NCBI RefSeq assembly: GCF_000619845.1
Contig: NZ_JHUX01000009.1
Location: 30,001-62,000 of the forward strand
DNA: 32,000 nucleotides
Direction of reading: 5' to 3'
Source of the DNA: Alkanindiges illinoisensis DSM 15370
Lineage (GTDB): Bacteria > Pseudomonadota > Gammaproteobacteria > Pseudomonadales > Moraxellaceae
The translations under genes and the position numbers were made by a program. The notes under the pieces are model-generated. The model was not told the origin of the DNA and did not search any database. It was given only the letters and a program-made list of their open reading frames with translations. This document shows, piece by piece, positions 2 to 30,985 of this stretch. Position 1 is the first letter of the stretch; each line of letters opens with the position of its first letter.

Positions 2-559
2 GCATTTATCCAGCAATTCAAGAAAAAACAGGCGCAGCAGCGTGAGGCTATTCCAAAATTACTCGACTGGCCACAATTTCTAAAACAGCAGGCCTTAAAG
101 GGTGATGAGCTTGCCGTTGAAAGCTTGCGTAAACGGGCTAAGGATAATTTTAAGCTCTATGACAACCAGATTCTAGGCTTGCCGGAAAAGACGTTTATTT
201 ACCATTCCTTAAAACCAGAAGTGAGAAAAAACGGCTCTATCGTATACCAGCTTCGGGATGGGGGTAGCATTGTTGACCGGGAAGCGGATTTACAGGTCGA
301 GCAGATTACCCAGCCAGCCGCATTTTTAGCCCTGACAATGGCCAAGGATAAGTTTGGCGCGCGCCCGTTAGAAATTAATGGCAGTGATGATTTTAAAAAT
401 GCACTGATTGAGGCAGCCGTAGAGCACCGTTTAAATGTCACATTTGCCAATCAGGATATGGAAAAAATACGCACCCGCAAAATGGGTGAGCTTGCCAAAC
501 AACCGCCACAACAATCAAATCAACAAGATGAAGCAATAAAACGAGGTAAATCAAGATGA
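2..559 (+). CDS. Conjugative relaxase, C-terminal fragment (5' end outside the window)
   Basis: The reading frame is open from base 2 (AFIQQFKKKQAQQREAIPKLLDWPQF...), so the TTG at 125 in the ORF track is probably internal. The stop TGA at 557-559 overlaps the ATG of the coupling-protein gene (ATGA). Its position upstream of traG-traF matches the IncP Tra1 order traI-traG-traF. No catalytic relaxase motif lies inside the window, so the call rests on synteny. Confidence 0.45.
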   Translation, partial: AFIQQFKKKQAQQREAIPKLLDWPQFLKQQALKGDELAVESLRKRAKDNFKLYDNQILGLPEKTFIYHSLKPEVRKNGSIVYQLRDGGSIVDREADLQVEQITQPAAFLALTMAKDKFGARPLEINGSDDFKNALIEAAVEHRLNVTFANQDMEKIRTRKMGELAKQPPQQSNQQDEAIKRGKSR

Positions 560-2475
560 AAGACTTAGAAGGTCAGAATAAGCGTATTTCAGCACCCCTG
601 GTTTATTTAATGGGTATGCTGTTTTTAATTTTTTCTTTTATGGTGGTTGGTAGTGTGGCCACACAAAAGATGGTGACTATTTTCAATCATCATCCTGCCC
701 TGGGCAAACCGCTGGTTGGCTCACTGTATGCCCCCTATAGGTTTTTAGTCTGGTATTTACAGTATAACGTCCCCGTTGGTCAGGGTTTACGGCCAAAACT
801 GGATTTGGTGATCATTTGTGTCCTGATTGCGGAAGGCCTGCTATTTCTGGTTACAGTCTTTACCATTGGCCTGATTACCAAGTCATCACGCAAGAATAAG
901 GATATTCATGGATCGGCACGCTGGGCTGAGTTTGACGAGCTGCCGGATATGGGCTTATTACCGCAAAAGGGTAAAAAAGGCGAGGGCGTTTATGTTGGCG
1001 CAATCCGCGATAAACAAGGACGTTTGCATTATTTACGGCACAATGGCCCTGAGCATGTGATTGGTATTGCACCAACCCGTTCGGGTAAAGGTGTAGGCCT
1101 TGTGGTTCCAACGACCTTATCCTGGCCGCATTCGATGCTGATCAGTGATATGAAAGGCGAGTTATGGGCAATGACGTCAGGCTGGCGCAGCCAGTATGCC
1201 AATAATATCTGCATTAAGTTTGACCCGGCTGCTGAACATGGCAGTGCCAGTTTTAATCCACTGGCCGAGATTCGCTTGGGGACACCGTATGAAGTCAGTG
1301 ACACACAGAATCTTGTCACGATTCTGGTTGATCCCGAAGGGAAGGGCTTAAATGACCACTGGTCTAAGACCGGTAGCGCCTTACTGGTTGGTGTGATCCT
1401 GTATACCCTGTACCGGGTAAAGGAAGAAACCGGCGGTATTGCGAGCCTTGGTGAAGTGGCCATGACCATTTCAGACCCAAGCCAGCCGATTGATGAGCTT
1501 TGGAATGCCATGCTGTTTAACCAGTATGGTGAAAATGGAGCAGCACATATTAATATTGCGTCACCAGCGCGCGATATGCAGAACACGCCTGAAGAAGAAC
1601 GTGGCTCGATTATTTCAACAGCGAGATCCTTTTTAACCCTCTACCGTGATCCGATTGTTGAGAAAAACACCAAATACAGTGACTTTACCGTTTCAGACCT
1701 GATGGATGCGGATAAACCGGTTTCCTTATACCTTGTAGTACGCCCAGGGGATAAAGACCGGTTAAAACCATTAATTCGCCTGATGCTGACCCAGATTCTA
1801 CGGGTACTGATCCGCGAGGAAATGAAAATAGGTGCTGATGGTGCAGCTAAAGCAGCCCATAAACACCGGCTACTGATGATGCTGGATGAATTCCCAGGCT
1901 TTGGCCGCTTGAAAGTGTTTGAAGATGCACTGCCGTATATTGCTGGTTATGGCATCAAGGCCTACCTGATAGCCCAGGATATTGAACAGTTACGTGCCAG
2001 TGATGCGTATGGCCGTGAGGAAACCATTTCTGCAAATTGCCATGTGCGTATTGCCTATGCACCCAATAAACTGGAAACCGCAGAATGGCTTTCTAAAATG
2101 TCTGGCCAGAAAACCCAGCATTCTGAAGAAATCTCAACCAGTGGCAACCGGTTTGGTGCCGTCATGGGCAATGTTAACCGGACATTTCATTCGTTTGCGC
2201 GTCCCCTGTTAACCCCAGATGAATGCTTACGCCTAAAAGCCCCCAAGAAAAGCCCGGATGGACTTAAAATTGTAGAATCCGGAGATTTACTGGTATTTGT
2301 CGCGGGTAACAATCCGGTCTATGGCGAACAATCCCTATTCTTTATTGACCCGACGTTTCAAAAGCGGGTTAAGGTGCCTGCCTTAAAAGAATCCCAGATC
2401 ATCCGGCCGCGTGCTGGTACTCAGCAAACCGCACATGATGCCGTTGATGAGTTTGTCATGGGTGAGGGGACATGA
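556..2475 (+). CDS. traG: Type IV secretion coupling protein (TraG/VirD4 family)
   Basis: 639-aa ORF with N-terminal TM helices (LVYLMGMLFLIFSFMVVGSVA; VIICVLIAEGLLFLVTVFTIGLI). It has a Walker A-like motif (GIAPTRSGKGVGLVVPT) and a Walker B-like motif (HRLLMMLDEF), typical of TraG/VirD4 T4CPs. ATGA overlaps occur with both neighbouring genes. Confidence 0.9.
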   Translation: MKDLEGQNKRISAPLVYLMGMLFLIFSFMVVGSVATQKMVTIFNHHPALGKPLVGSLYAPYRFLVWYLQYNVPVGQGLRPKLDLVIICVLIAEGLLFLVTVFTIGLITKSSRKNKDIHGSARWAEFDELPDMGLLPQKGKKGEGVYVGAIRDKQGRLHYLRHNGPEHVIGIAPTRSGKGVGLVVPTTLSWPHSMLISDMKGELWAMTSGWRSQYANNICIKFDPAAEHGSASFNPLAEIRLGTPYEVSDTQNLVTILVDPEGKGLNDHWSKTGSALLVGVILYTLYRVKEETGGIASLGEVAMTISDPSQPIDELWNAMLFNQYGENGAAHINIASPARDMQNTPEEERGSIISTARSFLTLYRDPIVEKNTKYSDFTVSDLMDADKPVSLYLVVRPGDKDRLKPLIRLMLTQILRVLIREEMKIGADGAAKAAHKHRLLMMLDEFPGFGRLKVFEDALPYIAGYGIKAYLIAQDIEQLRASDAYGREETISANCHVRIAYAPNKLETAEWLSKMSGQKTQHSEEISTSGNRFGAVMGNVNRTFHSFARPLLTPDECLRLKAPKKSPDGLKIVESGDLLVFVAGNNPVYGEQSLFFIDPTFQKRVKVPALKESQIIRPRAGTQQTAHDAVDEFVMGEGT

Positions 2476-3718: not shown

Positions 3719-3937
3719 ATGCCAATGCCTAAAGACCAAAAATTTGATACTGAACTTTTAGATACACAAATGCAGGAACCGGTTATCACCAGTGACCAGA
3801 ATATGCTGGGTGTTCCGGGTGTACTGGTAGAATTTGACCCGGATGAAGCGGATGCGTGGGGTGCAGTGGCCAGTGATCCCCGTGAAGTGGCAAGTGCTTG
3901 GGAAGATGCAATTGCAGATAGTGGGGAGCAGCCATGA
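3719..3937 (+). CDS. Small acidic hypothetical protein (72 aa)
   Basis: The ORF has a 4-nt ATGA overlap with the downstream ArdC-primase gene, suggesting translational coupling. It is strongly acidic (DPDEADAWGAVASDPREVASAWEDAIADSGE). I recognise no family. Confidence 0.4.
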   Translation: MPMPKDQKFDTELLDTQMQEPVITSDQNMLGVPGVLVEFDPDEADAWGAVASDPREVASAWEDAIADSGEQP

Positions 3938-6900
3938 AAAAAGAGTATGTTGATGAGCTGGCCAGCCGACTAATTGAGCAGATTAAAAGCAATACCGCAC
4001 CCTGGCAAAAACCCTGGCAGCCTGGTGTACCCAATGCCAGTTTGCCGATCAATGTAGTAACCGCTAAACCCTATAATGGCATGAACCTGATTAACCTTAT
4101 GTCCAAGGCCGAATATCAGGGTTATGACGATCCGCGCTGGATGACCTATAAGCAGGCACAAGGCTTAGGTGGCCAGGTTAAAAAGGGTGAAAAAGGCACA
4201 TCAATTCATTACTGGAAATTTTTTGATGAAAAAGTTATCAAGGATGAAAATAATAAGCCAGTACTGGATGAACACGGAAAACCCAAAAAAGTAAGAATCC
4301 AGCTTGAGCGCCCCCAGGTATTTTTTGCGACGGTCTTTAATGCCAATCAGGTTGACGGGCTGCCCCCACTGACACAAACCATTCCATTAAAGGAAGAATG
4401 GGCGCGTCACCAGCAAGCCGAACAGATTTTAAATGCGTCCGGTGTACCGATCCGGCATCTTAGTGGTGATAAGGCCTACTATTCTCCAGGTTTAGACAGA
4501 ATCACCATGCCAGAGCGGCAGCAATTTGATAGTGGCGATAAATATTATGCAACAGCCTTGCATGAGCTTGGCCATGCGACTGGCCATCCCAGCCGGTTAA
4601 ATCGGGATTTAACCGGTGGCTTTGGCAGTGAGAGTTACGCCAAAGAGGAGTTACGCGCTGAAATTGCTTCCATGATGATCGGTCAGGAGTTGCAGATTGG
4701 CCATGACCCCGGCCAGCATGTTGCTTATCTGCAAAGCTGGGTAAAGGTGCTTGAAAATGACGCCAAGGAAATTTTCAGGGCAGCACGTGATGCTGAGCAA
4801 ATTACCAAGTTTGTCATGGCATTCCAGCAACAGCAGCAACAGACCCAGACTGAAGATCAGTCCATACTTTCGTTAACGAAAATTGATCAGGCTTACCAGC
4901 CAAGTAATACCCCCAACCTGACCTCGCCATTACAGGCCTGGCAACTTCTGGAACAGGCTGCCAAAAGCAGGGGATATACTGCAAAACTTGATATTGAAGA
5001 AAACCCGGACAATATTGCCTTATCCAAAATCAAGGTCAATTATTTTAACGACAGTGGCATCCTGCCTTTTTCAAACACCATTGGCGGGAATGGCTTTGTC
5101 CGGGCAATCGAAAATAATCAATTCCTGCCCTACAACACCAATATCGCGGAAGTCATTCCACCTATCCTGACCGACATGATAGACCGGTATGAAAACCGGC
5201 TAAAACCGGTTAACCCGATTGATACCAATTTACTAGATGAGTTTGCCACCCATAAGGCCAACCATCCGGGTTTGTCGAATCCACTGGATTCATGGAATCA
5301 CATTAGCCAGTATGCTCAAAACATGGGCTACCGTGCCGATGTCAGCAGAAACCCGGATACCAGCGACGGCGCATCCCCCTACCTGATCGAATATTACGAC
5401 CAAGACCGGAAAACCGGCGTGCAGTCCCTGATGGAAGTGGACGGCAAAGTTTTAACGCAATTTGAGCAGGTACGAACCCAGGGTACAGGTTACACGTCAG
5501 ATGAAGTCTGGCAGCGGGACAGTTTAAGGGCGGCATTGCAAAAGGACTTTGACCAGAAAATCACCCAGCTTGCCAAAGTATCTAACGATGAGCGCAACCA
5601 GTCATTATTGGCAGGCCTGACCAAACTGGCCGAACTGAATAAACAGGGTGAATTTTACCAGTCAGAAAATGCACCCTATCGTCAAAGTATCCTGGATAAC
5701 CTGATCCGGGAAAATTTTGATAATCCTAAATTTACTGGTATTTCACTGCCGCATACCGAGGGTGGCCATATCCTGATTGAGAAATCAGCCAAAGCAGCAG
5801 GCCAGTGGCAGGTTACGATCTTCGACAGTGCAGGAGAACCAATCCGGGATAATGGGGCATACGACAAGCGAGAGGCCCTAGAGACGTTCTTTAGCGGCGT
5901 TCACATTGAGGCATCGGTTGCCGGTTTGAGCCAGCGGGAAAAAATCTATTTAGATGTACCCTACCATGAGAAAAATGAGGTGAAAGGGTTAGGGGCAAAA
6001 TGGGATAAAAAAGAAAAGGCTTGGTATATTATGAGCGATCAAAATAATGTGTCATTTAATAAATGGATAGCATCGGACATTAAGCCTGAAGCAACCAATA
6101 CCATTAATCCTGAACCTAATCCGGCCAGCAGCCAGAAGGTTTATCTAACCGTTCCGTTTGCCGATAAGGATAGTGTCAAGGAACTGGGCGCAAAATGGGA
6201 TAGAAAGGAAAAAGCCTGGTATATCGCTGCCGATACCAGCCAAGAGCCATTTAGCAAATGGTTGCCTGACGATAATGACAATACCTTACTCATCACTGTA
6301 CCGGTACTACCGGTTGAGTTAAAAGAAAATACCAGTGATCAAAATGTTTTTCTGGCCGTTCCTTATGAGGAACGTGACGCTGCCAAAGAGTGTGGTGCCA
6401 GATGGGACAATGAACAAAAATTGTGGTATGCCCCTGAAGGCACCGATTTAACGCCACTTCAGAGTTGGCTACCTGAAAACCAGCCCTATACTGACCATCA
6501 TGCTCATGTGGACTTACCACATCAGCAAGTGGCTGATCCGCGCGTTGAATTTGCCGCTGCCTTACGTGAAGCCGGTTTAGTGATTGAGGGCGAACCCCAG
6601 ATGGACGGCAAGTTGCAACGTGTCCGGGTGGAAGGCGATACATCATCAGAGCTAAGTGGAGCCTATAAAGGTCATTTAGATGGACGGCCAGCCGGTTATA
6701 TCAAGAATTTTAGAACTGGCCTTGAGCAAAAATGGAAATCAACCGGCAAGCTGGATGGAGCTGTCAACACGGCCAGGCTACGTGCTGAAGCTGCCCAGCG
6801 TCGCCAGAATAATGCGACCCAGCAAGAACATTTATATGAGCAGGTTGCAGAAAAAGCTGAACTGATTATGGATTTTGCCGAACCGTGTATTACCCATCGC

Positions 6901-7725
6901 TATTTACAGGAAAAAGATGTTTTACCACATGGCTTAAAAATAGTACCTGAAGGTAATCAGCAACTGGCTGATAAAGGCATCCTGATCGGCAATGACTGGA
7001 AGCAGTCCAAAGAACTTCGTGAAGCCCATCCTGATGCAATCGTTTTAACTAAAGGTGATCTTATTGTTCCGGCATACGATGCACATGGAAAGTTATGGAC
7101 GATGCAGACAATTGGCCATAATGGGTTTAAGTCATTTTTAAAAGACGGCAAGAAATCAGGAAACTTCTTTTTGCTTGGCCAGCCTGAGCCGGGCAAACCG
7201 ATCATTGCTGCCGAGGGTTTTGCAACCGCTGCAACCCTACGTGAAGTCACCAATCAGGTGGTTGCGGTTGCCTTTGATTCAGGAAACCTTAATGCAGTGG
7301 CCATGACCCTGCGTGAGCAATATGAGCCGGGTAAGCTGTATATTGCTGCCGACAATGATCATGTCAAGGAAGCAGAGCGCCGGGCAGCCGGGCATACCCA
7401 TAATTTAAACGTGGGCATTGAAAAGGCACAGCAGGCCGCTGAAGCCAGCCAGGGTTTTGTGCTTACACCTAAGTTTAGGGCAGATGATAAGGGTACGGAC
7501 TGGAACGACTTAAAGCGTAGTCAGGGCGTTGAAGTGGTAAAAACCCAGTTACGGCAAGCACTGGCCATTGCCCAGCTTCAGGAAAATAAGGCAAAAGTGG
7601 TAGAACGTAGTATTGCCGCCACTCATCAACAGGTTGAGAGCAATAGTGTAGAGCCGGAAAATTTAGCTAAAAAGCTGATCCGGCATCCTGAGCAAAAGCA
7701 AAATAGGGGATTAAGACTGTCTTAG
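3934..7725 (+). CDS. Polyvalent ArdC-N / zincin metallopeptidase / repeat / Toprim primase protein (TraC-like)
   Basis: 1263 aa. The N-terminus has ArdC-type ssDNA-binding motifs (APWQKPWQPG...PYNGMNLINL...RWMTYKQAQGLGGQVKKGEKG). A zincin HExxH follows (ALHELGHATGH ... EELRAEIAS), then a poly-Q linker. Next come two copies of a motif (SPLQAWQLLEQAAKSRGYTA / NPLDSWNHISQYAQNMGYRA). Three tandem repeats of about 45 aa follow (...GAKWD+KEKAWYI...). The C-terminus is primase/Toprim-like (DGKLQRVRVEGD...GAYKGHLDGRPAGYIKNFRTG; IIAAEGFATAATL; YIAADNDH). Confidence 0.85.
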   Translation: MKKEYVDELASRLIEQIKSNTAPWQKPWQPGVPNASLPINVVTAKPYNGMNLINLMSKAEYQGYDDPRWMTYKQAQGLGGQVKKGEKGTSIHYWKFFDEKVIKDENNKPVLDEHGKPKKVRIQLERPQVFFATVFNANQVDGLPPLTQTIPLKEEWARHQQAEQILNASGVPIRHLSGDKAYYSPGLDRITMPERQQFDSGDKYYATALHELGHATGHPSRLNRDLTGGFGSESYAKEELRAEIASMMIGQELQIGHDPGQHVAYLQSWVKVLENDAKEIFRAARDAEQITKFVMAFQQQQQQTQTEDQSILSLTKIDQAYQPSNTPNLTSPLQAWQLLEQAAKSRGYTAKLDIEENPDNIALSKIKVNYFNDSGILPFSNTIGGNGFVRAIENNQFLPYNTNIAEVIPPILTDMIDRYENRLKPVNPIDTNLLDEFATHKANHPGLSNPLDSWNHISQYAQNMGYRADVSRNPDTSDGASPYLIEYYDQDRKTGVQSLMEVDGKVLTQFEQVRTQGTGYTSDEVWQRDSLRAALQKDFDQKITQLAKVSNDERNQSLLAGLTKLAELNKQGEFYQSENAPYRQSILDNLIRENFDNPKFTGISLPHTEGGHILIEKSAKAAGQWQVTIFDSAGEPIRDNGAYDKREALETFFSGVHIEASVAGLSQREKIYLDVPYHEKNEVKGLGAKWDKKEKAWYIMSDQNNVSFNKWIASDIKPEATNTINPEPNPASSQKVYLTVPFADKDSVKELGAKWDRKEKAWYIAADTSQEPFSKWLPDDNDNTLLITVPVLPVELKENTSDQNVFLAVPYEERDAAKECGARWDNEQKLWYAPEGTDLTPLQSWLPENQPYTDHHAHVDLPHQQVADPRVEFAAALREAGLVIEGEPQMDGKLQRVRVEGDTSSELSGAYKGHLDGRPAGYIKNFRTGLEQKWKSTGKLDGAVNTARLRAEAAQRRQNNATQQEHLYEQVAEKAELIMDFAEPCITHRYLQEKDVLPHGLKIVPEGNQQLADKGILIGNDWKQSKELREAHPDAIVLTKGDLIVPAYDAHGKLWTMQTIGHNGFKSFLKDGKKSGNFFLLGQPEPGKPIIAAEGFATAATLREVTNQVVAVAFDSGNLNAVAMTLREQYEPGKLYIAADNDHVKEAERRAAGHTHNLNVGIEKAQQAAEASQGFVLTPKFRADDKGTDWNDLKRSQGVEVVKTQLRQALAIAQLQENKAKVVERSIAATHQQVESNSVEPENLAKKLIRHPEQKQNRGLRLS
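5941..6480 (+). repeat. Three tandem in-frame protein-domain repeats inside the polyvalent primase gene
   Basis: The three units are IYLDVPYHEKNEVKGLGAKWDKKEKAWYIMSD..FNKW, VYLTVPFADKDSVKELGAKWDRKEKAWYIAAD..FSKW and VFLAVPYEERDAAKECGARWDNEQKLWYAPEG..LQSW. They start at about 5941, 6133 and 6340. They resemble the small domain often fused to plasmid primases and topoisomerases; a DUF5710-type assignment is from memory and unverified. Confidence 0.7.
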
Positions 7726-14439: not shown

Positions 14440-14450
14440 GATTAATCATC

Positions 14451-16020: not shown

Positions 16021-16035
16021 TTAGTCAGTTAGTAC

Positions 16036-16066: not shown

Positions 16067-16141
16067 TGAGAATCCTACTCATTTATAAACAGGAAGAGGA
16101 GAGTAATGCTCAGAATTTGGGTTACTAATTAAATTACTCCT

Positions 16142-16489: not shown

Positions 16490-16575
16490 GTATCAATCCA
16501 TCACTGGTAAGTAAATATATCATTTAACGATGCATTTGCTCACCGTTTTTCATGAATTGAGATATAGGCAGAGTT

Positions 16576-17988: not shown

Positions 17989-17990
17989 GT

Positions 17991-22200: not shown

Positions 22201-22512
22201 AGTTTTATTCGTGAGTTACGTGAGAATGGTTTAAGTGTGTATCAGGCCACTTGGCAGGGCGCAATTTTGCGTTTGCGTCCTGTGCTGATGACGGCATTTG
22301 TTGCTTCGCTGGGTTTTGTACCAATGGCGCTAGCCACAGGAACTGGCGCAGAAGTACAGCGTCCCCTGGCAACTGTGGTGATAGGCGGAATTATTTCCTC
22401 TACCCTGTTAACGCTGCTTTTCCTACCGGTGGTATACCGTTGGATAAATAGCCGTGCTGATAAGGTAAAAGATATTGAAGATAAATCTAATAGGGAACTG
22501 TTACAGATATAG
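19255..22512 (+). CDS. czcA: RND heavy-metal efflux pump (HME-RND, CzcA-like)
   Basis: 1085 aa with 12 TM helices and two large periplasmic loops. It has typical CzcA/CusA-family blocks (GALDFGIIIDGAVVIVEN; VGFIALSGVAVLNGLVM). An N-terminal extension of about 35 aa precedes the usual start. It overlaps the czcB stop. Confidence 0.92.
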   Translation: MITDNDSANNAQQASLNNSAKDSPNKQENQIKLEGWFDRIIQTSIHLRGWVMLLILGLVAIGIMSYQKLPIDAVPDITNVQVQINSAAPGFTALEAEQRITYPIERVMAGLPQLELTRSISRYGLSQVTIVFEDGTDIYWARQLINQRLQEAKSQMPEGIEPIMSPISTGLGEIYLWTLSAAPDAKKADGTAYTPADLREVQDWVVRPQLQRVPGVAEINTIGGFTKQYLVQPNFNALQGYDLGIEDIRIALSLNNENRGAGFVDENGQQLTVRVPGQLGSLLDIGDVVVSQKNGIPIKVSDVATVSIGHDLRTGAATMNGQETVLGTAMMMMGANSRVVSQAVDEKIQEVKRSLPKGVVLDTVYNRTTLVDKAIATVQKNLIEGAILVIAVLFLFLGNIRAAIITACVIPLSMLFTLTGMVQQNISANLMSLGALDFGIIIDGAVVIVENCIRRLAEEQHRQGRLLTRQERFTQVFLAAKQARRPLIFGQLIILVVYLPIFALTGVEAKLFHPMAMTVVIALIGAMILSVTFVPAAVALFITGKVEEKENRVMRTLKRWYLSTLNNAYAFKNVMVVVALAILLLTGLIATKLGSEFAPTLSEGDFALQSMRAPSTSLEESLRMQERMEAALLKQFPEIDRIFARTGTAEVATDVMPPNISDGYIMLKPKSEWPDQQQTLPELRERLQEVVEHQVGAVSEFSQPIELRFNELISGIRSDVGVKIFGDDMQVLNQQAEIIAAKLRQINGAADVKVEQTSGLPLLTIEIKRDAAALYGLNTKQIQDTVATAIGGTIGGQILQGDRRFDLVIRQNDQMRNPEQLAQLPIRLNTGGVVALSQVADVRTVLGISQMSRENGKRRVVVTTNVNGRDLGSFVADLQSAVREVQLPTGYWVDYGGQFENLQSASKRMQLVVPLALFLVFALLIAVFSNIRDSILVFSGVPFALTGGVVALWLRDIPFSMSAGVGFIALSGVAVLNGLVMLSFIRELRENGLSVYQATWQGAILRLRPVLMTAFVASLGFVPMALATGTGAEVQRPLATVVIGGIISSTLLTLLFLPVVYRWINSRADKVKDIEDKSNRELLQI

Positions 22513-22536
22513 GGATATTCAGATACTCAACTGAAT

Positions 22537-22562
22537 AAAGGCTTGTCCTAGGACAAGCCTTT
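22537..22562. terminator. 26-bp perfect palindrome after czcA (terminator-like)
   Basis: AAAGGCTTGTCCT|AGGACAAGCCTTT lies 25 nt after the czcA stop. The T-tract is short (TTTCCTT). Confidence 0.5.
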
Positions 22563-22810
22563 CCTTCTATCGTACTCGTGCTCCTCTATTTATTTAAAAA
22601 AGGAGTCGCGTATTTTCTATTTGGATACTTACTCCCTGACAATTTATATTTTTTCTCCAAATAACCGAACAGCTTTTTCAATACTACTAGGGTTTTTATT
22701 ACTTAGTTTGTTGACAGTATCCAATAGATGCTGGCATGAGCAAGCAGAGATTAGTATTTATACAGTTCATCTATAACCAACAACAGAGTGCTCTTCTGAG
22801 GAGAAGGCGT

Positions 22811-23746
22811 ATGAGCGGCAACCATAATCATAGCCACGTTCCCACTGGTCAAGGTAATAGCAAACGTTTATGGATGGCTTTGGGGCTGACCGCATCGTTT
22901 CTTATCGTTGAAGTGGTAGGCGGCATTATCACCCAGAGTCTGGCGTTGTTGTCTGATGCGGCACATATGTTTACTGATGTGACTGCTTTGGTAATTGCTT
23001 TAGTGGCCATGCAGATAGCCAAACGCCCAGCTGACCGCAAGCGTACCTTTGGCTATCACCGCTTTGAAATTCTAGCGGCAGCATTTAATGCGTTACTACT
23101 ATTTGCCGTGGCTTTTTATATTCTTTATGAAGCATGGGTACGTTTTCAAAACCCTCCCGAAATTCACTCAACGGGCATGCTGGTGATTGCAGCTTTTGGC
23201 TTGTTAATTAATGTAGTTGCTATGTTTTTACTAATGGGTGGTCAAAAAGACAGCCTAAATGTTAAGGGAGCTTATCTTGAAGTTTTGGCCGACGCACTAG
23301 GATCAATAGGAGTAATTATTGGTGCACTGGTTATCAAGTTTACCAGTTGGTTATGGGTAGATAGCGCCATTGCCGTTGCTATCGGCTTTTGGGTATTGCC
23401 GCGTACATGGATACTTTTGCGCGACAGTGTGAATATCTTACTCGAAGGTGTGCCTGCTGATATTAATCTGGATTCTATTGAAGCAGATTTAAAGGCACTG
23501 GATAAAGTCACAGGCGTCCATGATTTGCATGTATGGTCAATCACCAGCGGTAAACATACTTTGACTGCCCACTTGGTAGTTACTACCACAGATTGGCAAA
23601 AAGTTCTGGATGCGGCACAATTAATGCTGGCAAAAAATTACCAATTAAATCATGTGACCATTCAGTGTGAAAATGCAATATGTGAGGTAGGTCATATTGA
23701 TGCCCATCAATTTAAACAGACTTCAGAAACTCACGATGATGCTTAG
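22811..23746 (+). CDS. czcD: Cation diffusion facilitator CzcD/ZitB-type
   Basis: The ATG at 22811 (MSGNHNHSHVP...) has a GAGGAGAAGG RBS. I prefer it to the track start at 22736. CDF motifs are present (LALLSDAAHMFTD; HDLHVWSITSG), along with a His-rich N-terminus and a C-terminal domain. Confidence 0.9.
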   Translation: MSGNHNHSHVPTGQGNSKRLWMALGLTASFLIVEVVGGIITQSLALLSDAAHMFTDVTALVIALVAMQIAKRPADRKRTFGYHRFEILAAAFNALLLFAVAFYILYEAWVRFQNPPEIHSTGMLVIAAFGLLINVVAMFLLMGGQKDSLNVKGAYLEVLADALGSIGVIIGALVIKFTSWLWVDSAIAVAIGFWVLPRTWILLRDSVNILLEGVPADINLDSIEADLKALDKVTGVHDLHVWSITSGKHTLTAHLVVTTTDWQKVLDAAQLMLAKNYQLNHVTIQCENAICEVGHIDAHQFKQTSETHDDA

Positions 23747-24289: not shown

Positions 24290-24706
24290 TTAATTACCAA
24301 AAAAATATTCTATTAAAACTATAAGCTTAGGCCATAAAATGTATAGAAAAGGGGTTAGGATAATTAGAAATAGCCCCCTTTGTATCTTACTTTCTTTCCA
24401 GCCATGTACCATGCCTATGACTAACACGCCAACTATGGCAAACAGAATAGATAAAGTAGTTAAGATGATATGACTTGGCTTGCCTAAACTTATATTTATT
24501 GGAAAGTCATCTACGGTTGGACTGGTTTGTATTAGTGGGAATAATTCAACGCCTTTCCAAATTGCAAAAAGGAAGAAAGCAATTAGAGAAAGGCTAAATA
24601 AAAATTTCTCAAAAAAACTTGCTGTACGACCTTTGGTCATTACAGAGACACCAAAGATTAAATATATTATTGCGCCGATTAATTGAAGTTCATTGATAGC
24701 GTCCAT
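24290..24706 (-). CDS. Small integral membrane protein (about 4 TM helices), unknown function
   Basis: 138 aa with four hydrophobic segments (LIGAIIYLIFGVSVM; FLFSLSLIAFFLFAIW; IILTTLSILFAIVGVLVIGMV; LFLIILTPFLYILW). It starts 11 nt after the recombinase stop. Confidence 0.55.
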   Translation of the reverse strand: MDAINELQLIGAIIYLIFGVSVMTKGRTASFFEKFLFSLSLIAFFLFAIWKGVELFPLIQTSPTVDDFPINISLGKPSHIILTTLSILFAIVGVLVIGMVHGWKESKIQRGLFLIILTPFLYILWPKLIVLIEYFFGN

Positions 24707-24717
24707 TGGATTAATTC

Positions 24718-25410
24718 CTAAGCTTTAATTGCTATAGTATTGTTTGAATCGGCCTGAATATCTGACAGCTTCTTTTCTTCAATTTCCTGTTGCTTGATCT
24801 TTTTGATATAACGCCAGATGGTTTGATAATGAACCTGATATTTCGCCGTTAATTCTTTTGGTGTTAAAACATCCTTATCATTTTTCAGCTCAGCGAGTTG
24901 AGCCTCGGTTAAAGCCGGTTTTCTACCTTTATATTTTCCTTTACGCTTGGCCACTGCAATCCCTTCACGCTGGGCTTCCCGGATTAAAGCCCGTTTGAAT
25001 TCTGCCACAGCGCCCACCACATGAAACAGGAATTTATCCATAGGGTTGTCGCTATTTGCAGTGAAAGTGATATTTTCCTTATTAAATTTTACAGTGACCC
25101 CTTTGCCATTTAAGGTTTTAACTATATTGATCAGGTTTTCCAAGTCACGCGCCATGCGATCCATACTATGGACTAGTACCGTATCACCTTCGCGCACATA
25201 CTCAATGAGTTCATCCAGTGCCGGTCTATTTTTCTTGGCTCCACTGATTTTGTCAGTAAAAACCTTATCCAGCTTAAAACCGGCCAGTTGCCGTTCCGTA
25301 TTCTGGTCTACACTGGATACCCGGATATATCCCACTGTCTGGGTTTTAGCATTGTGATTGATGACTTCCTCAATATCGACGGTTTGATCATCCTGGGCGT
25401 GCTTGACCAT
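24718..25410 (-). CDS. Small serine recombinase (resolvase/invertase family)
   Basis: 230 aa. The catalytic N-terminal block is VGYIRVSSVDQNTERQ ... GDTVLVHSMDRMARD. A C-terminal HTH is present (TPKELTAKYQVHYQTIWRYIKK). A leader of about 26 aa precedes the catalytic block. Confidence 0.9.
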   Translation of the reverse strand: MVKHAQDDQTVDIEEVINHNAKTQTVGYIRVSSVDQNTERQLAGFKLDKVFTDKISGAKKNRPALDELIEYVREGDTVLVHSMDRMARDLENLINIVKTLNGKGVTVKFNKENITFTANSDNPMDKFLFHVVGAVAEFKRALIREAQREGIAVAKRKGKYKGRKPALTEAQLAELKNDKDVLTPKELTAKYQVHYQTIWRYIKKIKQQEIEEKKLSDIQADSNNTIAIKA

Positions 25411-25412
25411 AA

Positions 25413-25958
25413 TTAATCTATTTCCTCAAAGTAATAGCCCTGAGCTTTATGGTGACCATCGAATTCGTTGTCATAGCCAAACTGCCACTGTAGATTCTTT
25501 TTTGAAAATGCCCGGTGAGGATTGGAGCTATTTTTTTCTATACAGGCTTTTGCGCCTGCGTTGTAGGTCAGATCAATAATATAGCTATGGCCGTCAATAA
25601 TGATTTCTCGCGGGATAGGCTTTGACGCTTGTTTCTTTAAAATACGATAGGTGAGTTTTTCTAAATCACTGACCTTAATACCTAGATAATCAAAAATTTC
25701 TTGCCTGGCATTATATTCAAGATGAATGACGGATATGCAATCCATCAGGGTACGGGGCTGTAGCTCCTTTAGGAACTGTAGATTAAAAAGGCATTTACTT
25801 CCTTTATAAAAGTTGACGATGAAAAGCCCGGCTATGTAGGCCTCTCTGCTTTCTCCCTGGGCTAAATCGTATAACCGTTCTAATGCCGGTATGCCTGCAT
25901 CATGTGAGGTTTTCTCATAAAGCTTTAGAAAGCTAGGGCTATTGTAATAAGCAGTCAT
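25413..25958 (-). CDS. Hypothetical two-part protein (181 aa) heading the recombinase operon
   Basis: The ORF ends 2 nt before the recombinase ATG. The N-terminal part (ALERLYDLAQGESREAYIAGLFIVNFY...FNLQFLKEL...DCISVIHL) resembles a conserved hypothetical domain I associate with plasmids and ICEs. The C-terminal part (YNAGAKACIEKNSSNPHRAFSKKNLQWQFGY) has an Rmf/CrpP-like pattern. Both assignments are unverified. Confidence 0.55.
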   Translation of the reverse strand: MTAYYNSPSFLKLYEKTSHDAGIPALERLYDLAQGESREAYIAGLFIVNFYKGSKCLFNLQFLKELQPRTLMDCISVIHLEYNARQEIFDYLGIKVSDLEKLTYRILKKQASKPIPREIIIDGHSYIIDLTYNAGAKACIEKNSSNPHRAFSKKNLQWQFGYDNEFDGHHKAQGYYFEEID

Positions 25959-26134: not shown

Positions 26135-26201
26135 TACAACCCTATTGTTATATGTTTTTTAATGTTGCATTTTATAACAATAGGGTACACCCTATTGTTA
26201 G
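26135..26201. promoter_or_regulatory. Three copies of a CCCTATTGTTA half-site (res/operator-like) in the divergent control region
   Basis: TACAACCCTATTGTTATA lies at 26135-26152. Its inverted copy TATAACAATAGGG lies at 26173-26185. TACACCCTATTGTTAG lies at 26186-26201. The last two form a 12-4-12 dyad (ATAACAATAGGG-TACA-CCCTATTGTTAG, 26174-26201). Confidence 0.6.
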
Positions 26202-26222
26202 TATTTAAGGGTATGATATAAT
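26195..26222 (+). promoter_or_regulatory. Sigma70-type promoter with extended -10 for the zeta-like operon
   Basis: The -35 is TTGTTA (26195-26200), followed by a 16-bp spacer. The extended -10 is TGATATAAT (26214-26222). The -35 is embedded in the third repeat copy. The promoter lies 33 nt upstream of the GTG start at 26255. Confidence 0.55.
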
Positions 26223-26254: not shown

Positions 26255-27520
26255 GTGGATTTAGCAATTAATAAGTTGGCGCTTGGCGGCGATGAGGAAA
26301 AACTAAAAGTTCAAGCGGCAGTGATTGACCGGGCAAAGAAAGACGGCCAGAAAATTATTGACCAGTATAAACAGCATCCTAGTACCTTCGACGGTCGCTA
26401 TATTTGTTCAGATATGTTTAAGGAAATGTTTCCTGAATTTTCCCAGTCACCGGCCACACGCAACAAGTTCAATAATGCAGTGCATAACACAGCGGCAACA
26501 CTGGCCGCAGAGCATTTTAAGCAAACCATGCGTCAGACTGGAGCTGAAGGACAGGACACCGTTATTTTTCTGACCGGTTCACCGGGGGCAGGTAAAACGT
26601 CCAGTGTGGTCAGTAACATGCAGCTACCTGCAAACGTCAAGGCCGTATATGAGGGCCAGCTCGTCAATGCAACAGATAAAAGCACGCTCGACAAGTTTCA
26701 GCAGGCCATCAACAGCGGTGCAAAGATTGAAGTGATTGCTGTTCATGCACTACCGGAGAATGCGTTAGAGAATACCTTTAAACGGTTTAATGATCCGAAT
26801 GATGGACGGGGAGCCAGTATCGGGACAATGGCCAGGATTCAGGGTAATACGGCTGAAGGACTAGAAAAATTACATGATTTTTTTGGTGACAGGATTAATC
26901 TAAGGGTATTAGATGTTAGACAGCAAGGTAATGCAGTACCCTTAAAAGGTTGGCAACACTTAAATGTACTTAAATCAGAGGGTAACGAGCATGACATTAA
27001 GCAGCGACTTGAAAAACACTTACTCAAGCATTGGCAACAAGGAGCAATTACAAATGAATGTTTTGAACAAGCCGCCTGTGGAAAGGCAGAATTCCACAGA
27101 CTCACACGAGGAACAGATGGACAATCTGCTGGACACAATGGCGGCCAACTTGAATCGCATGAGCCAGGACGAAAATTACCGCAAGGAAGTGGCAGCCAGG
27201 GCAACAACCCCACAAGACAACAGCAAGAAGCCATCTTAAAGCTTAGAGCCGTTGCCTTACACGTTGGTGCAGACGTCAGGCCGCAAATGCCTGGCGAAAC
27301 CAAGGGTAAGATCGTGGCGGAAACCAGTGGATTTATCTTGCAGCGTTTAGGCGAGGGCAGTAAGTTTTTTATGGTTCACGATAAAGCATCACTGGCCACT
27401 GTTCCCCGGATCGACGATGAGGTAAAAATTCTCCATCGCAAAGAACCCAATCAAAAGGCCAGGGTAGAGCTGGTCAATCAAACTCAATCACAGAGCCAGG
27501 GTAAAGGCCGTACCCGATAA
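26255..27520 (+). CDS. Zeta-toxin-like P-loop kinase with a low-complexity linker and a conserved C-terminal module
   Basis: 421 aa with a GTG start. The zeta/PezT-like N-terminus has the Asp-containing ICSDMFKEMFPEF motif followed by VIFLTGSPGAGKTS (Walker A at 26576-26599). A G/Q/S-rich linker follows. The C-terminal approx. 57 aa (27290-27478) are about 50 percent identical by hand alignment to the C-terminus of the 29030-30070 protein. The tail is basic (GKGRTR). Confidence 0.75.
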   Translation: MDLAINKLALGGDEEKLKVQAAVIDRAKKDGQKIIDQYKQHPSTFDGRYICSDMFKEMFPEFSQSPATRNKFNNAVHNTAATLAAEHFKQTMRQTGAEGQDTVIFLTGSPGAGKTSSVVSNMQLPANVKAVYEGQLVNATDKSTLDKFQQAINSGAKIEVIAVHALPENALENTFKRFNDPNDGRGASIGTMARIQGNTAEGLEKLHDFFGDRINLRVLDVRQQGNAVPLKGWQHLNVLKSEGNEHDIKQRLEKHLLKHWQQGAITNECFEQAACGKAEFHRLTRGTDGQSAGHNGGQLESHEPGRKLPQGSGSQGNNPTRQQQEAILKLRAVALHVGADVRPQMPGETKGKIVAETSGFILQRLGEGSKFFMVHDKASLATVPRIDDEVKILHRKEPNQKARVELVNQTQSQSQGKGRTR

Positions 27521-27539
27521 TTTTTAGAATGGTAAAATA

Positions 27540-28496
27540 ATGAGTGCATCTAATATTGTTGAAAATTTTGCGGTGACTTCAATTTGTTATAGTCCTGATG
27601 GTGAGCGACTGGCCACAGCCGGTTACTCTACAACGGAACTTAATATCTGGCAGCTTGGCCAGAATCCTCAGAAAATTGCCACACTTGATTTAGCTGATAC
27701 TCAAAATCCGGTAAATTCAATTAGCTGGAGCCAAGATTATTTATCAGCCATTGCCAATACTGCCCAGGAAATTTTTATCTTTGATCAGCAATTTAACAAG
27801 GTAAAGACCTTAACCAAAGGCATTAGCCGCGAGATTCTGGTTAATCAGTTTAACCACAATGGCCGTGAGCTGCTGGTGGCCACCAGACGACCATTAAACC
27901 AGAGCCTAAAAAAACAGGGCTTAACAGCCGTTCCTGATATTGTGATTTACACCACGCCAAACTGGAATAGCCAGGCCTTTGAAAGTGGCTTTTACATCTT
28001 TGGGGCGAGCTGGTTAAGCGATCTAGTGGTGGTTGCCGGTAATGACCGCGCGAATGAACACCAGTTTTCAGTGGAAGTTTTTAATCCGGCCACTGGCCAG
28101 CAACATAAAATCAGTCTGGGTGCGCCTGCTGATGAAGCACGCCTAGCGGTATTTAAAGATAAGCATAAGATTGGCGTCACCTTTAAAGTGAATAATGACA
28201 GTGACGGTACGTTTGAAAGTCATTTTTATGTACTGCATTATAATAAGGACACCGGCAACTTTCAGGTTTTGCATTCAGCAACCCTGTCCAGTCCTGACCA
28301 GTTCGTTAATGTGGCCTTTACCACTGACTATACCATTTTAGACACTTATATTAATGGCCAGTCCAGGGCTGAAAGTCTGGACGCTTTAGGCAATATACAG
28401 CATGAGAAAACCTTCCAGTATCCAACCACTTATGGCTTGGCCACTTATGATGTGATTACGGCCATTGCTGTTGCTAATGAAGTGATATTTATCTAA
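27540..28496 (+). CDS. WD40-like beta-propeller protein, cytoplasmic
   Basis: 318 aa with no signal peptide. It has one clear WD-like blade (VTSICYSPDGERLATAGYSTTELNIWQL). Repeated beta-strand-rich units follow (NSISWSQDYLSAIA..IFIFD; ELLVATRR; DLVVVAGND..SVEVFN). It starts 19 nt after the kinase gene. Confidence 0.6.
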   Translation: MSASNIVENFAVTSICYSPDGERLATAGYSTTELNIWQLGQNPQKIATLDLADTQNPVNSISWSQDYLSAIANTAQEIFIFDQQFNKVKTLTKGISREILVNQFNHNGRELLVATRRPLNQSLKKQGLTAVPDIVIYTTPNWNSQAFESGFYIFGASWLSDLVVVAGNDRANEHQFSVEVFNPATGQQHKISLGAPADEARLAVFKDKHKIGVTFKVNNDSDGTFESHFYVLHYNKDTGNFQVLHSATLSSPDQFVNVAFTTDYTILDTYINGQSRAESLDALGNIQHEKTFQYPTTYGLATYDVITAIAVANEVIFI

Positions 28497-28542
28497 GGCC
28501 TATAGCAGCGATGATTCACCCTTTCACGGTTTAAGTCTATTT

Positions 28543-28956
28543 ATGAATAACCTAATGATTAAGCTGTTGTTATTGCTTGGATGTACCCTAAGCTTAAATT
28601 TATACGCTAAGGATAATTGGGTTAAGCTCTGGCTCTCCAAGGGTTTATTGGCTTATATGTCTGTAGATCATATCTATCCGCAAGATTCAAATGCTAAGCT
28701 GGTCAATGCCTGGATCAAGTTTGAACAAGTGAACAATAAAGATTATCTTTTGATGCTCTATCAGTTCGACTGCACAGAAAAGTCATTCGATATCTTGCAG
28801 GTAGATAAATACACTGCTGATAATGAATTTCAAAGCCGCATATCTTCCAAGCCAGAAGATAAATCATTGAAAACTTTTTTAAGTCCGAATGATAAGGCCT
28901 TAGAAAACTCCTACAATATTGCTTGCGATTACGCTAAAGCTCATCCGCTACCCTAG
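28543..28956 (+). CDS. Small exported protein, possible lipoprotein
   Basis: 137 aa with the signal peptide MNNLMIKLLLLLGCTLSLNLYA. It has a possible lipobox (LLGC), or alternatively an SPase I site after LYA. Two conserved-looking Cys residues are present (FDCTEKSF ... NIACDY). The pattern resembles the surface-adhesin protein E-like fold; this is from memory and unverified. Confidence 0.6.
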   Translation: MNNLMIKLLLLLGCTLSLNLYAKDNWVKLWLSKGLLAYMSVDHIYPQDSNAKLVNAWIKFEQVNNKDYLLMLYQFDCTEKSFDILQVDKYTADNEFQSRISSKPEDKSLKTFLSPNDKALENSYNIACDYAKAHPLP

Positions 28957-29029
28957 AATATTTTTATTACCTAACTTTCTTCAGGGTTAGTTACTTCATA
29001 ACTGAAATTAATTAAAACGGTTAAATTAG

Positions 29030-30070
29030 ATGGCCAATATCAAGCAGCTCATTGAAGCCAACAAGAACAGCTATGCGCGTCTACGCAATCCCGGATCAGA
29101 CACGCTCGATGAGCTGAAGAATTATAATGTGGTCAAGTATGCAATGGATGAGCGTAGTGATCATGGCGGACTGGCCTATTACAATCCTGAAGACAAAACC
29201 CTGATTGTCGCGCACCGGGGCAGTGAAACCCGGCGTGACTGGCTAGTGACTGATGTTCAGATTGCAGTGGGTGTTAAGGAAACCCTGGCAGATATGGCCG
29301 CCATGCGCTTTACGGATTCTGTGATTGAAAAGCTGGATCGCAATGGCCATGATATTGATTTGATCGTACAGACTGGCCATTCCAAGGGTGGCCGGGAAAG
29401 CCAGATGTGCGTTAAAAAGCTGGTAGAAACCACAGATATTGAATGTATCGGCATGACGTTCAATGCTACCCGGATTCATGGCAAGCAGAAAAATAAGGAT
29501 ATAGATTATCCTAGTGTAAATTTGAGGGTAACTGGGGGATCAGCCTTTTCAACTGATGTGGTCAGCTCGTTTGGCCAGCAGCTTGGCCATAATGTTGATG
29601 TAACCCTGCCCAACGTAAAAAACTTTATCCAGGCGCATAAGCTGTCCACCTTTGACAGTATGATTGAAACCTATCCTGAGTTTAGCAATATGGACATTAA
29701 GGACGTGATGCGTGAAATTAAAAAGGGTGTCCAGCTTGCGTCCATCGAGCAGGGCTACCCTGGGCAACAGCAGAACAACAGTCCACAGGATGTAAAAAGC
29801 CTGATTAATCACTTAACCGGTACGCCGGAAATCCGCACGGCCACACCAGGGACCGTCACCAAAGGGCAGATTGTGGCTCACACCCAAACCCAGGTTGTTC
29901 AGCAGCTTGGTGAGAACAGCAAATTTTTCATGCTACATGATAAGGCCACCTTATCGCGTATTCCTGATATTGGGACGAATGTTCAAATTAAGCACAACAA
30001 GAATTCAAGCCTGAAGGCCGGTGTAGAACATCTGGCACCGCAGCAATTTCCCAAAAAAATGACGAGATAA
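29030..30070 (+). CDS. Class-3-lipase-like alpha/beta hydrolase with the same C-terminal module as the zeta-like kinase
   Basis: 346 aa. It has the lipase_3-like block LIVAHRGSETRRDWLVTDVQ and the nucleophile elbow TGHSKGG (29375-29392). A Q-rich linker follows. The C-terminal module is GQIVAHTQTQVVQQLGENSKFFMLHDKATLSRIPDIGTNVQIKHNKNSSLKAGVEHL (29846-30034). The tail is basic (PKKMTR). Confidence 0.7.
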   Translation: MANIKQLIEANKNSYARLRNPGSDTLDELKNYNVVKYAMDERSDHGGLAYYNPEDKTLIVAHRGSETRRDWLVTDVQIAVGVKETLADMAAMRFTDSVIEKLDRNGHDIDLIVQTGHSKGGRESQMCVKKLVETTDIECIGMTFNATRIHGKQKNKDIDYPSVNLRVTGGSAFSTDVVSSFGQQLGHNVDVTLPNVKNFIQAHKLSTFDSMIETYPEFSNMDIKDVMREIKKGVQLASIEQGYPGQQQNNSPQDVKSLINHLTGTPEIRTATPGTVTKGQIVAHTQTQVVQQLGENSKFFMLHDKATLSRIPDIGTNVQIKHNKNSSLKAGVEHLAPQQFPKKMTR

Positions 30071-30322: not shown

Positions 30323-30985
30323 CTATGGTTTTTTGGCTATCGTTTCAAGAGCGGTTTGATTGTCGCTTAGCCAAGAGGCTGTTATCTCACAACGAAATCT
30401 CACCAGTTCTATTATTTTATGATAATCATCAGCTAATGCTCGATTAAAAATAGGTTCATGATGGGCAATTCGATTTCTCAAATATCGAATTTGATCAAGA
30501 TACTGGTAAATCATTGTGCGTCGTTCTGTTATGGTTTTTGCTACATCCATATTGGGTAGTACGCTAGTGAGATAAGGAATCCATAGACGTTCATCATAAC
30601 GTTGAGTAAACATTTTTTGCCAGAACACAAATTTAAGTTCCGGGATAACTTTCCCTGTAGCCTGAGTACTTCGTCGTGCATTCATCAGATCCCTGCGTGG
30701 ACTGTACCCAATGCGCGGGTCGGGTAAGCTTCTTTCAAAAACTGTTGCCCAAGGCCACTGGGTTCCATAAACAGATTCTAAAGCAGCGGCAACAGCATTA
30801 CGGATCACTACCTCACAAAGATGTAACGGCGTTAGTAACGCTCCGGACACTTGTGCATTCCATGCATAAAGGTGCAAAGCTGCCAGCTCATCAACATTTG
30901 CTGTCCCAATGGCCGTTTCATAGGTTGCAATTCGCGCTGGAGAGATTGCTGTTTTTATGGCATTAATCATTGCTTGGTTTGACAT
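30323..30985 (-). CDS. Abi_2-family (AbiD/AbiF-like, HEPN-type) abortive-infection protein
   Basis: 220 aa. Family hallmarks are ISPARIATYE, LHLYAWNAQVSGALLTPLHLCEVVIRNAV, ELKFVFWQKMF and the Rx4-6H HEPN motif within IRYLRNRIAHHEPIF. Confidence 0.8.
   Translation of the reverse strand: MSNQAMINAIKTAISPARIATYETAIGTANVDELAALHLYAWNAQVSGALLTPLHLCEVVIRNAVAAALESVYGTQWPWATVFERSLPDPRIGYSPRRDLMNARRSTQATGKVIPELKFVFWQKMFTQRYDERLWIPYLTSVLPNMDVAKTITERRTMIYQYLDQIRYLRNRIAHHEPIFNRALADDYHKIIELVRFRCEITASWLSDNQTALETIAKKP

Follow-up and report, generated by a model that had tools for sequence, protein, structure and literature searches.

A kinase and a lipase-fold hydrolase with a common KfrB module in an operon of an IncP-like Alkanindiges plasmid: candidates for delivery during conjugation

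Proteins can reach a recipient cell during conjugation, as illustrated by ArdC and by TraC1 of RP4, which arrive there as full-length proteins (PMC5512222), and by the FicT-BID toxin VbhT, which owes its BID domain to a relaxase and has a basic tail, and which a conjugative type IV secretion system (T4SS) passes to other cells; a PezT-BID protein has been predicted and more of such toxins are expected (Harms 2017, PMC5675462). Here we describe an operon of four open reading frames (ORF1 to ORF4) at positions 26,255 to 30,070 of a stretch of 32,000 nucleotides from Alkanindiges illinoisensis DSM 15370 (contig NZ_JHUX01000009.1), the whole of which is called the window below. Two of its products, a zeta-type kinase (ORF1) and a lipase-fold hydrolase (ORF4), end in the same small domain, KfrB, and a short basic tail that closes with Arg, and we discuss the possibility that these proteins are cargo of the conjugative T4SS of the plasmid.

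The closest described system is ng_epsilon1/ng_zeta1 of the Neisseria gonorrhoeae plasmid pConj (6EPG, 6EPH, 6EPI; Rocker et al. 2018, PMC5923241). The kinase ng_zeta1 phosphorylates UDP-N-acetylglucosamine (UNAG), UDP-N-acetylmuramic acid (UNAM) and UDP-glucose at the C4'-OH group, and it lyses Escherichia coli unless epsilon1 is co-expressed; the K115A mutant is inert (PMC5923241). ORF1 has the same architecture throughout, consisting of a rewired zeta kinase domain, a linker, the C-terminal KfrB or 'OB' barrel and an Arg-terminal tail (...GKGRTR as compared to ...KKSISR in ng_zeta1), and both loci belong to conjugative plasmids of the MOBP/MPF_T type with an adjoining resolvase. The window differs in that it has no epsilon1 gene and in that ORF1 heads an operon that also encodes a propeller and a lipase; moreover, the activity of ORF1 is a predicted one.

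VbhT of the Bartonella pVbh T4SS (PMC5675462) is likewise encoded on a conjugative plasmid and joins a toxin domain of the toxin-antitoxin (TA) type to a folded C-terminal domain and a positively charged tail, and here too a toxin-type enzymatic domain resides on a conjugative element that has its own coupling protein. The tail is similar to that on relaxases, and KfrB itself occurs on one representative relaxase. However, KfrB is a small beta-barrel whereas BID is helical, BID is absent from ORF1 and ORF4, the relaxase C-terminus is not detectably homologous to KfrB, VbhT has a cognate antitoxin, and translocation is only proposed here. The polyvalent proteins (Iyer, Burroughs, Anand, de Souza and Aravind 2017, PMC5512222) form a network that includes zeta-toxin-like kinases, ArdC-N, MPTase and Toprim domains, and their proposed role is likewise to act in the recipient early in transfer. 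In contrast to these, ORF1 and ORF4 are stand-alone two-domain proteins encoded in an operon of their own with a propeller partner, and the main text on polyvalent proteins mentions neither KfrB nor a lipase (PMC5512222). A preliminary description of the locus, made from the letters of the sequence, knew of no described system with this composition, which is half true, since a toxin of the ORF1 family has been crystallised and zeta kinases are already listed as polyvalent-protein domains of conjugative elements.

Two further comparisons concern the module itself. KfrB of IncP-1 plasmids (kfrABC, PF18790) is a short protein, annotated as functioning in plasmid maintenance and encoded in the zygotically induced leading region, whereas the module discussed here is a C-terminal appendage on enzymes that is likened to it through the Pfam family match only; when a tie to authentic IncP KfrB was sought by a tblastn search of PLSDB with a short KfrB-only representative, no match was found. 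The effectors of the Xanthomonas killing system (X-T4SS; X-Tfe) are toxic enzymes, including lipases, with a common C-terminal domain (XVIPCD) that is recognised by VirD4. Unlike these, ORF1 and ORF4 carry no XVIPCD and the T4SS is conjugative instead of dedicated to killing; and unlike the periplasmic immunity lipoproteins of that system (X-Tfi), the candidate partner is a cytoplasmic propeller, while the exported ORF3 is not conserved.

The two enzymes and their common C-terminal module

The four genes lie on the forward strand: ORF1 at 26255–27520 (421 aa, GTG start), ORF2 at 27540–28496 (318 aa), ORF3 at 28543–28956 (137 aa) and ORF4 at 29030–30070 (346 aa), with gaps of 19, 46 and 73 nt. 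In these coordinates, in the motifs quoted for ORF1 (ICSDMFKEMFPEF, GSPGAGKTS) and ORF4 (VAHRGSETRRDWLVTD, GHSKGG), all of which were found, and in the assignment of a zeta/PezT-type kinase, a class-3 lipase, a common C-terminal module, a cytoplasmic propeller and an exported ORF3, the preliminary description was right. The locus constitutes an accessory operon in the backbone of an IncP-like plasmid (MOBP relaxase, TraG coupling protein) of the Alkanindiges/Acinetobacter lineage; a megablast search of PLSDB with the operon yielded no near-identical plasmid.

The C-termini of ORF1 and ORF4 are 42% identical over 90 aa (BLASTP, E=7e-17), so that the module they were said to have in common is real. 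Both score above the gathering threshold of 25 bits for the Pfam family KfrB (PF18790), with 32.7 bits (7e-8) for ORF1 and 39.8 bits (5e-10) for ORF4. KfrB is the only C-terminal Pfam match; the module is not a Xanthomonas XVIPCD.

An exhaustive HMMER search of 1.84 billion representative proteins (E<=0.001) found the module in 139 representatives. It nearly always lies at the very C-terminus: in 118 of 138 proteins no more than 30 residues (median 10) follow the last KfrB copy, and Arg is the final residue in 98 of 138, as compared to about 10% of the background ORFs in the loci that were fetched for comparison (L numbers below). Typical tails are ...RGLSR, ...QELGR and ...KSKSR, and ng_zeta1 itself ends in ...KKSISR. 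The N-terminal partners are MPTase (12), ArdC-N (8) and zeta kinase (8), next to one relaxase with TraI_middle and LPD7, Fic, HEPN, PRTase, a serine esterase and others. On Moraxella bovis plasmids the whole ORF1 cassette is found at the C-terminal end of a TraC-like primase protein, a homologue of the TraC-like protein of the window, in the order ArdC-N, MPTase, DUF5710, Toprim, Zeta, KfrB. Two further arrangements were seen in the fetched loci: an AbiEii nucleotidyltransferase fused to KfrB near TrbM (L005, 2101–3144), and, on Acinetobacter baumannii plasmid pCCBH31258 (L013, 4306–5300), a Fic gene followed by a frameshift and a KfrB-like region.

The tail alone extends to the relaxases. Of the 28 ORFs in the window only those for the relaxase, ORF1 and ORF4 end in Arg, and a basic tail with a terminal Arg was present in six of eight sampled TraI/MobA(P) relaxases, namely those of IncP-1 plasmid R702 (...TTRGRSR), Legionella (...TRGRRR), Sphingobium (...SKGRSR), two Acinetobacter plasmids and Pseudomonas viciae. 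The beta-rich segment that precedes the relaxase tail was considered as a divergent KfrB, for which no support was obtained (hhalign probability 0.8%). Since this segment is not detectably homologous to KfrB, the relaxase has only the tail in common with ORF1 and ORF4.

Residues 5–274 of ORF1 align with residues 8–268 of ng_zeta1 (6EPH_B; phmmer against the PDB, E=5.8e-48, 37% identity). The PDB match, Pfam and the module profile together delimit a kinase domain (about 5–274), a low-complexity linker, a KfrB beta-barrel (about 345–400) and the basic tail ...GKGRTR. In the alignment ORF1 keeps GRYxxxDxFKE, NNAVHNTAA, the P-loop GSPGAGKTS with the catalytic Lys, EGQ and GRGASIG. The KfrB-module profile also matches residues 325–392 of 6EPH_B (E=1.9e-8), which constitute the 'OB-fold' C-terminal barrel of the crystal structure, and because both the kinase domain and the barrel match, ORF1 is a full-length member of the ng_zeta1 family. 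By analogy, UDP-GlcNAc and UDP-MurNAc would be the substrates that it phosphorylates.

ORF4 is composed of a class-3-lipase-fold hydrolase with Ser118, Asp176 and His203, a KfrB barrel (about 275–335) and the basic tail ...PKKMTR, as delimited by Pfam, AlphaFold, Foldseek and alignment. The AlphaFold (AF2) model has a pLDDT of 85, and its top 25 Foldseek matches are all class-3 lipases or feruloyl esterase A (E 5e-7 to 1e-3, probability 1.0). Pfam gave a Mbeg1-like match of 13.1 bits, below the cutoff of 21.1, and no Lipase_3 match; a precomputed match to PF26363 ('Phospholipase-like') is weak. The family is rare, with 15 clusters among 5.8 billion proteins, and 11 Acinetobacter plasmids encode homologues that are annotated as Mbeg1-like/DUF2974. 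The C-termini of the homologues are modular, some having KfrB, others unrelated tails and others long extensions. Ser118 (GHSKG), Asp176 and His203 are invariant in 15 homologues. In the same Foldseek search the ORF4 model also matched Bartonella Bep1/BepA (4nps, 5nh2, 2vza; probability 0.99–1.0, 112–130 aligned columns), and the KfrB barrel, judging from the model, may be similar to the OB fold located between FIC and BID in Bep effectors.

A type II epsilon/zeta module has its cognate epsilon antitoxin gene upstream, and such a gene is missing at ORF1: there is no ORF of at least 30 aa between the promoter and the GTG start. Nor did phmmer searches with ng_epsilon1 and M. bovis epsilon as queries reveal an epsilon-like gene in the six frames of the window and its relatives; a marginal match in L001, in another frame than the polyvalent gene, was judged spurious. 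Stand-alone ORF1 homologues on Burkholderia and Paraburkholderia plasmids also have no annotated upstream antitoxin and no epsilon-like match. For a pure TA module the missing antitoxin gene is odd.

The propeller-lipase pair and the replaced segment

ORF2 is, judging from fold comparison, a cytoplasmic WD40-type beta-propeller. Its Pfam matches to WD40/beta-propeller families are sub-threshold and its model is poor (pLDDT 55), so that only the fold class can be read from it; the top Foldseek matches are all seven-bladed WD40 propellers (E~3e-8, TM~0.5). ORF2-like genes immediately precede ORF4-like genes, in many cases with the stop codon of the first overlapping the start codon of the second, in Acinetobacter sp. 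ESL0695 (L002), on pYH16056-2 (L015), pHUAV/AMR-R (L016) and pLS488 (L017), and in L038, and in all five of these loci the zeta kinase is absent or degenerate. Since propellers thus track lipases, and since kinases of the ORF1 family occur elsewhere without a propeller (L003, L014, L001, L012), the conserved, translationally coupled pair is ORF2 with ORF4 and not ORF1 with ORF2, as had been assumed at first. The pairing is not obligatory, because one lipase-KfrB lineage directly follows the resolvase without a propeller. The upstream partners of two other lipases (P0008 and P0010) were compared with ORF2 and were negative by BLASTP; hhalign gave E~0.003, with a full-length colinear alignment for L008, which is suggestive and is not counted as evidence.

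Several of these loci show rearrangements of their own. In L038 (5308–8266; Neisseria sp. HSC-16F19) a Fic domain is fused ahead of the ORF2-like propeller, the gene of which overlaps that of a lipase homologue without KfrB, and this Fic-propeller/lipase pair adjoins a tyrosine integrase. In the metagenomic contig L020 (5611–6165), which has intact ORF2 and ORF4, ORF1 has shrunk to a KfrB-only protein of 184 aa and there is no resolvase operon. The zeta-like proteins of pYH16056-2 (L015, 4896–5828) and pLS488 (L017, 6298–7242) have lost their N-terminal half with the P-loop and keep KfrB and a tail (...KSMGLKR), and on both plasmids genes for a membrane protein of 159 aa and a protein of 89 aa lie between the degenerate zeta-like gene and the propeller-lipase pair.

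ORF3 has a different history. It lies on a segment of 562 nt with 35% GC (28468–29029, forward strand) that replaces 77 nt of the relatives and also changes the last eight codons of ORF2 (from 28468). Among five metagenomic contigs with a 99%-identical ORF4, the fifth of which is L020 with its shortened ORF1, four have the order ORF1-ORF2-ORF4, as does Alkanindiges hydrocarboniclasticus; in these three-gene relatives, which have no ORF3, the spacing between ORF2 and ORF4 is 48 nt. ORF3 is also absent from all other loci with an ORF4 homologue that were examined. Homologues were found neither by tblastn against plasmids nor in the PDB, the search of 5.8 billion proteins gave one identical copy, no contig matched exactly, and beyond identical or 96%-identical Alkanindiges copies no relatives were found; a match to Adhesin_E is weak (E=0.03). 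The N-terminal hydrophobic, signal-like segment (MNNLMIKLLLLLGC..LYA, followed by KD), read directly from the sequence, suggests an exported protein that would be either a lipoprotein or cleaved by signal peptidase I. ORF3 is a recent lineage-specific orphan acquisition and not a core component of the system. A role as the conserved immunity partner of ORF4 is ruled out for such an orphan, which sits on a replaced low-GC segment and which the closest relatives do without.

Candidate delivery during conjugation and competing explanations

The constant C-terminal position of KfrB and the tail, their modular occurrence and the company of transferred proteins in which they are found can be explained if they mark proteins for the conjugative T4SS, with ORF1 and ORF4 as escort or interbacterial-effector proteins. 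We prefer this reading tentatively, with a confidence that stays somewhat short of even. The similar tails of the relaxases, the missing antitoxin gene, the precedent of VbhT and the recurrent propeller-lipase coupling speak for it as well. The beta-barrel and the short basic tail with its final Arg would together form a portable unit that flags proteins for T4SS export, with TraG as the presumed receptor for T4SS substrates, and ORF1 and ORF4 would be delivered into recipients together with the plasmid DNA. Once there, they might loosen the wall or membrane, or impose a penalty on recipients that fail to establish the plasmid. In the donor, ORF2 would most likely bind the lipase, as inhibitor, chaperone or adaptor. 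The preliminary description also tied both enzymes to the T4SS of the element through their module, and to this extent its reading is favoured here as well, with the same reserve; among the options that it listed, the injection of polyvalent-type proteins into recipients is the one best supported. The broader proposal, that KfrB plus a C-terminal-Arg tail is a widespread and so far unrecognised bipartite translocation signal of MOBP/MPF_T (IncP-like) conjugative T4SSs, like BID plus a basic tail, must be considered doubtful.

Several observations weigh against delivery. In the literature searched there is no paper or experiment that links KfrB or the Arg tail to recognition by a coupling protein or T4SS. 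The terminal Arg is missing in two of the eight relaxases, in the M. bovis fusion and in about 29% of the KfrB proteins, and the failure to detect KfrB in the relaxase C-terminus counts on the same side. The lipase-KfrB genes of L004–L007 have no propeller, and the Fic-propeller fusion of Neisseria sp. fits poorly with a simple immunity role for ORF2. The representative library comes without genomic context, so that a link with conjugation is presumptive for most of the 139 proteins. The proposed model does not account for the survival of donors that carry an intact zeta kinase and no antitoxin.

The strongest rival, although in our estimate improbable, is a plasmid-stability module, in which ORF1 is the toxin of a post-segregational killing (PSK) system and KfrB ties the proteins to a Kfr/partition network or to DNA instead of to the secretion system. 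ORF2 or some unrecognised factor would then restrain the kinase as a non-epsilon antitoxin, unless tight repression at the 12-mer sites upstream of the operon does so. Observations that argue for stability also diminish the case for delivery: with its antitoxin, ng_zeta1 aids plasmid maintenance in gonococci, and the zeta1 K115A mutation gives low-level loss of pConj (PMC10212123). Authentic IncP KfrB, with the whole of kfrABC, is annotated as serving plasmid maintenance. A serine resolvase adjoins most loci, as in stability regions (the window, L001, L002, L004–7, L012, L015 and L017), and the 12-mers overlap the promoter and could be res subsites. An operon beside a multimer-resolution resolvase recalls parCBA/parDE of RK2. 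Against stability stand the lack of an epsilon-like gene, the fact that ORF2 tracks the lipase and not the kinase, and the presence of a cytoplasmic lipase, which to our knowledge is not a known type of PSK toxin. Moreover, M. bovis has the kinase-KfrB cassette as part of a TraC-type protein, a type that is transferred, the module is common to ArdC and a relaxase, and some relatives (L020, L015) have kept KfrB and the tail although their kinase is deleted or degenerate.

A close variant of delivery is that KfrB acts as an OB-like nucleic-acid binder, by which the enzymes are loaded on the transferred single strand or the relaxosome and enter the recipient passively, without being recognised themselves by the coupling protein. 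The C-terminal domain of ng_zeta1 was described as an OB fold, weak profile matches to S1 and S17 OB folds were obtained (E 0.5–1.2), the module co-occurs with the ssDNA-binding ArdC-N domain, and DNA-bound co-transfer is the model put forward for polyvalent proteins (PMC5512222). However, passive loading leaves the strict C-terminal position and the conserved terminal Arg unaccounted for, the OB-fold matches are not significant, and DNA binding by KfrB is only putative. We consider it less probable still than a stability function.

Two toxin-immunity pairs, ORF1/ORF2 in the cytoplasm and ORF4/ORF3 in the periplasm, engaged in contact-dependent killing by a T4SS in the manner of the Xanthomonas X-T4SS, were the preferred interpretation of the preliminary description, and are now implausible. 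It is true that both enzymes are from toxin-type families and have a common C-terminal module, and that the element carries traG. Nevertheless, neither pair stood up to comparison: ORF2 co-varies with ORF4 and accompanies the lipase in loci without an active zeta kinase, and ORF3 is an orphan that the closest relatives lack. A periplasm-acting lipase neutralised by a lipoprotein is also difficult to reconcile with ORF4, which has no signal peptide. Finally, the module is KfrB and not XVIPCD, and the element has the T4SS genes of a conjugative IncP-like Tra1 block. Least probable of all is an anti-phage abortive-infection operon with kinase and lipase effectors and a propeller sensor, for even though the neighbouring Abi_2/HEPN gene at 30323–30985 matches PD-T4-5 (3e-17), Abi/HEPN genes lie near related loci and KfrB is fused to AbiEii and HEPN, the four proteins gave no significant PADLOC match (best E~6e-4, P-loop only; none for ORF3 and ORF4) and the company of ArdC, relaxase and TraC points to the offensive or establishment side of the plasmid.

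Plasmid setting and implications

The window opens with an IncP-like Tra1 block, consisting of the end of a relaxase gene, traG, and genes for a TraF-like S26 peptidase, a lytic transglycosylase and a TraC-like protein. The relaxase part is the C-terminal portion of a TraI/MobA(P) protein with an LPD7 domain (2..559, forward strand; ...AIKRGKSR). As the preliminary description had placed it, traG is found at 556..2475 on the same strand and encodes a TraG/VirD4-type coupling protein (T4SS-DNA_transf 2e-103, TraG-D_C). The TraC-like polyvalent protein (3934..7725, forward strand, 1263 aa) has ArdC-N, MPTase, three DUF5710 and Toprim domains, and its end (...QNRGLRLS) comes near to an Arg-terminal tail without matching one. 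The region from 7780 to 23746, between the TraC-like gene and the resolvase operon, carries arsenic resistance genes, lspA, FeoB-like and CDF transporter genes, a MerR regulator gene and a czc-type RND efflux operon. The backbone order of the Acinetobacter plasmids pLS488 and pYH16056-2 is the same (TraF, SLT, TraC, resolvase, operon, SprT) without metal cargo, and because the arsenic/metal block is absent at that position in pLS488 it is probably inserted cargo. The closest genomic relatives are A. illinoisensis and A. hydrocarboniclasticus, both Moraxellaceae.

Upstream of ORF1 a divergent operon (24290..25958, reverse strand) encodes a DUF7673 protein (25413–25958), a serine resolvase (24718–25410) and a small membrane protein of 138 aa; a resolvase adjoins the KfrB-tagged genes in most related loci. 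The intergenic region contains a promoter-like site at 26139..26222 on the forward strand, the function of which can only be inferred. Its core, TTGTTA-16-TATAAT with an upstream TG (26195–26222, 10 of 12 matches), is the best such site of the region, with the -35 element TTGTTA at 26195 and the extended -10 element TG-TATAAT ending at 26222. The -35 element is overlapped by three exact copies of the 12-mer ACCCTATTGTTA, two direct (26139 and 26189, forward strand) and one inverted (26175, reverse strand), and no further exact copies occur elsewhere in the window. In total, promoter-like sites in the region are not in excess (11 as compared to 9.8 in shuffled sequence). From their position, the ACCCTATTGTTA copies may be either operators or subsites of a resolvase res site. 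A search for a conserved res-like architecture between the corresponding genes of other plasmids gave short repeats of unrelated sequence. The DUF7673 protein could be a candidate regulator at the 12-mer sites; a second member of its family is encoded close to TraX, SprT and H-NS genes in a further locus with an ORF4 homologue (L008, 11540–12112). Downstream, and convergent with the operon, lies the Abi_2/HEPN gene (30323–30985, reverse strand), which also matches AbiD; its product, likely an abortive-infection protein on the basis of these matches, is kept at 100% identity in Alkanindiges contigs.

The family of each of the proteins is known and the delivery of toxins during conjugation has been published, so that the present finding extends that idea and does not define a new kind of system. 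New in the sources searched are how broadly KfrB plus Arg tail occurs, its strictly C-terminal placement and its company of transferred proteins, the recurrent zeta1 cassette without an antitoxin, and the propeller-lipase pair. The signals for T4SS export are poorly defined, which makes the prediction of cargo difficult at present. If the tag is real, injected cargo could be read from sequence in conjugative plasmids of Acinetobacter, Moraxella, Neisseria, Burkholderia and others. Such plasmids would then inject ArdC anti-restriction proteins, primase polyvalent proteins, zeta kinases, lipases, Fic and AbiEii proteins and HEPN toxins. It would also lead to a reinterpretation of gonococcal ng_zeta1, which is discussed as a drug target: the protein would be injected as well, instead of being solely a post-segregational killer, and there would be a hypothesis for its crystallised C-terminal domain. 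Should the tag be wrong, the locus still shows an active-looking zeta toxin that recurs without a recognisable antitoxin. If it is right, a lipase-type enzyme with a WD40 partner would join the proteins that plasmids may deliver in mating.

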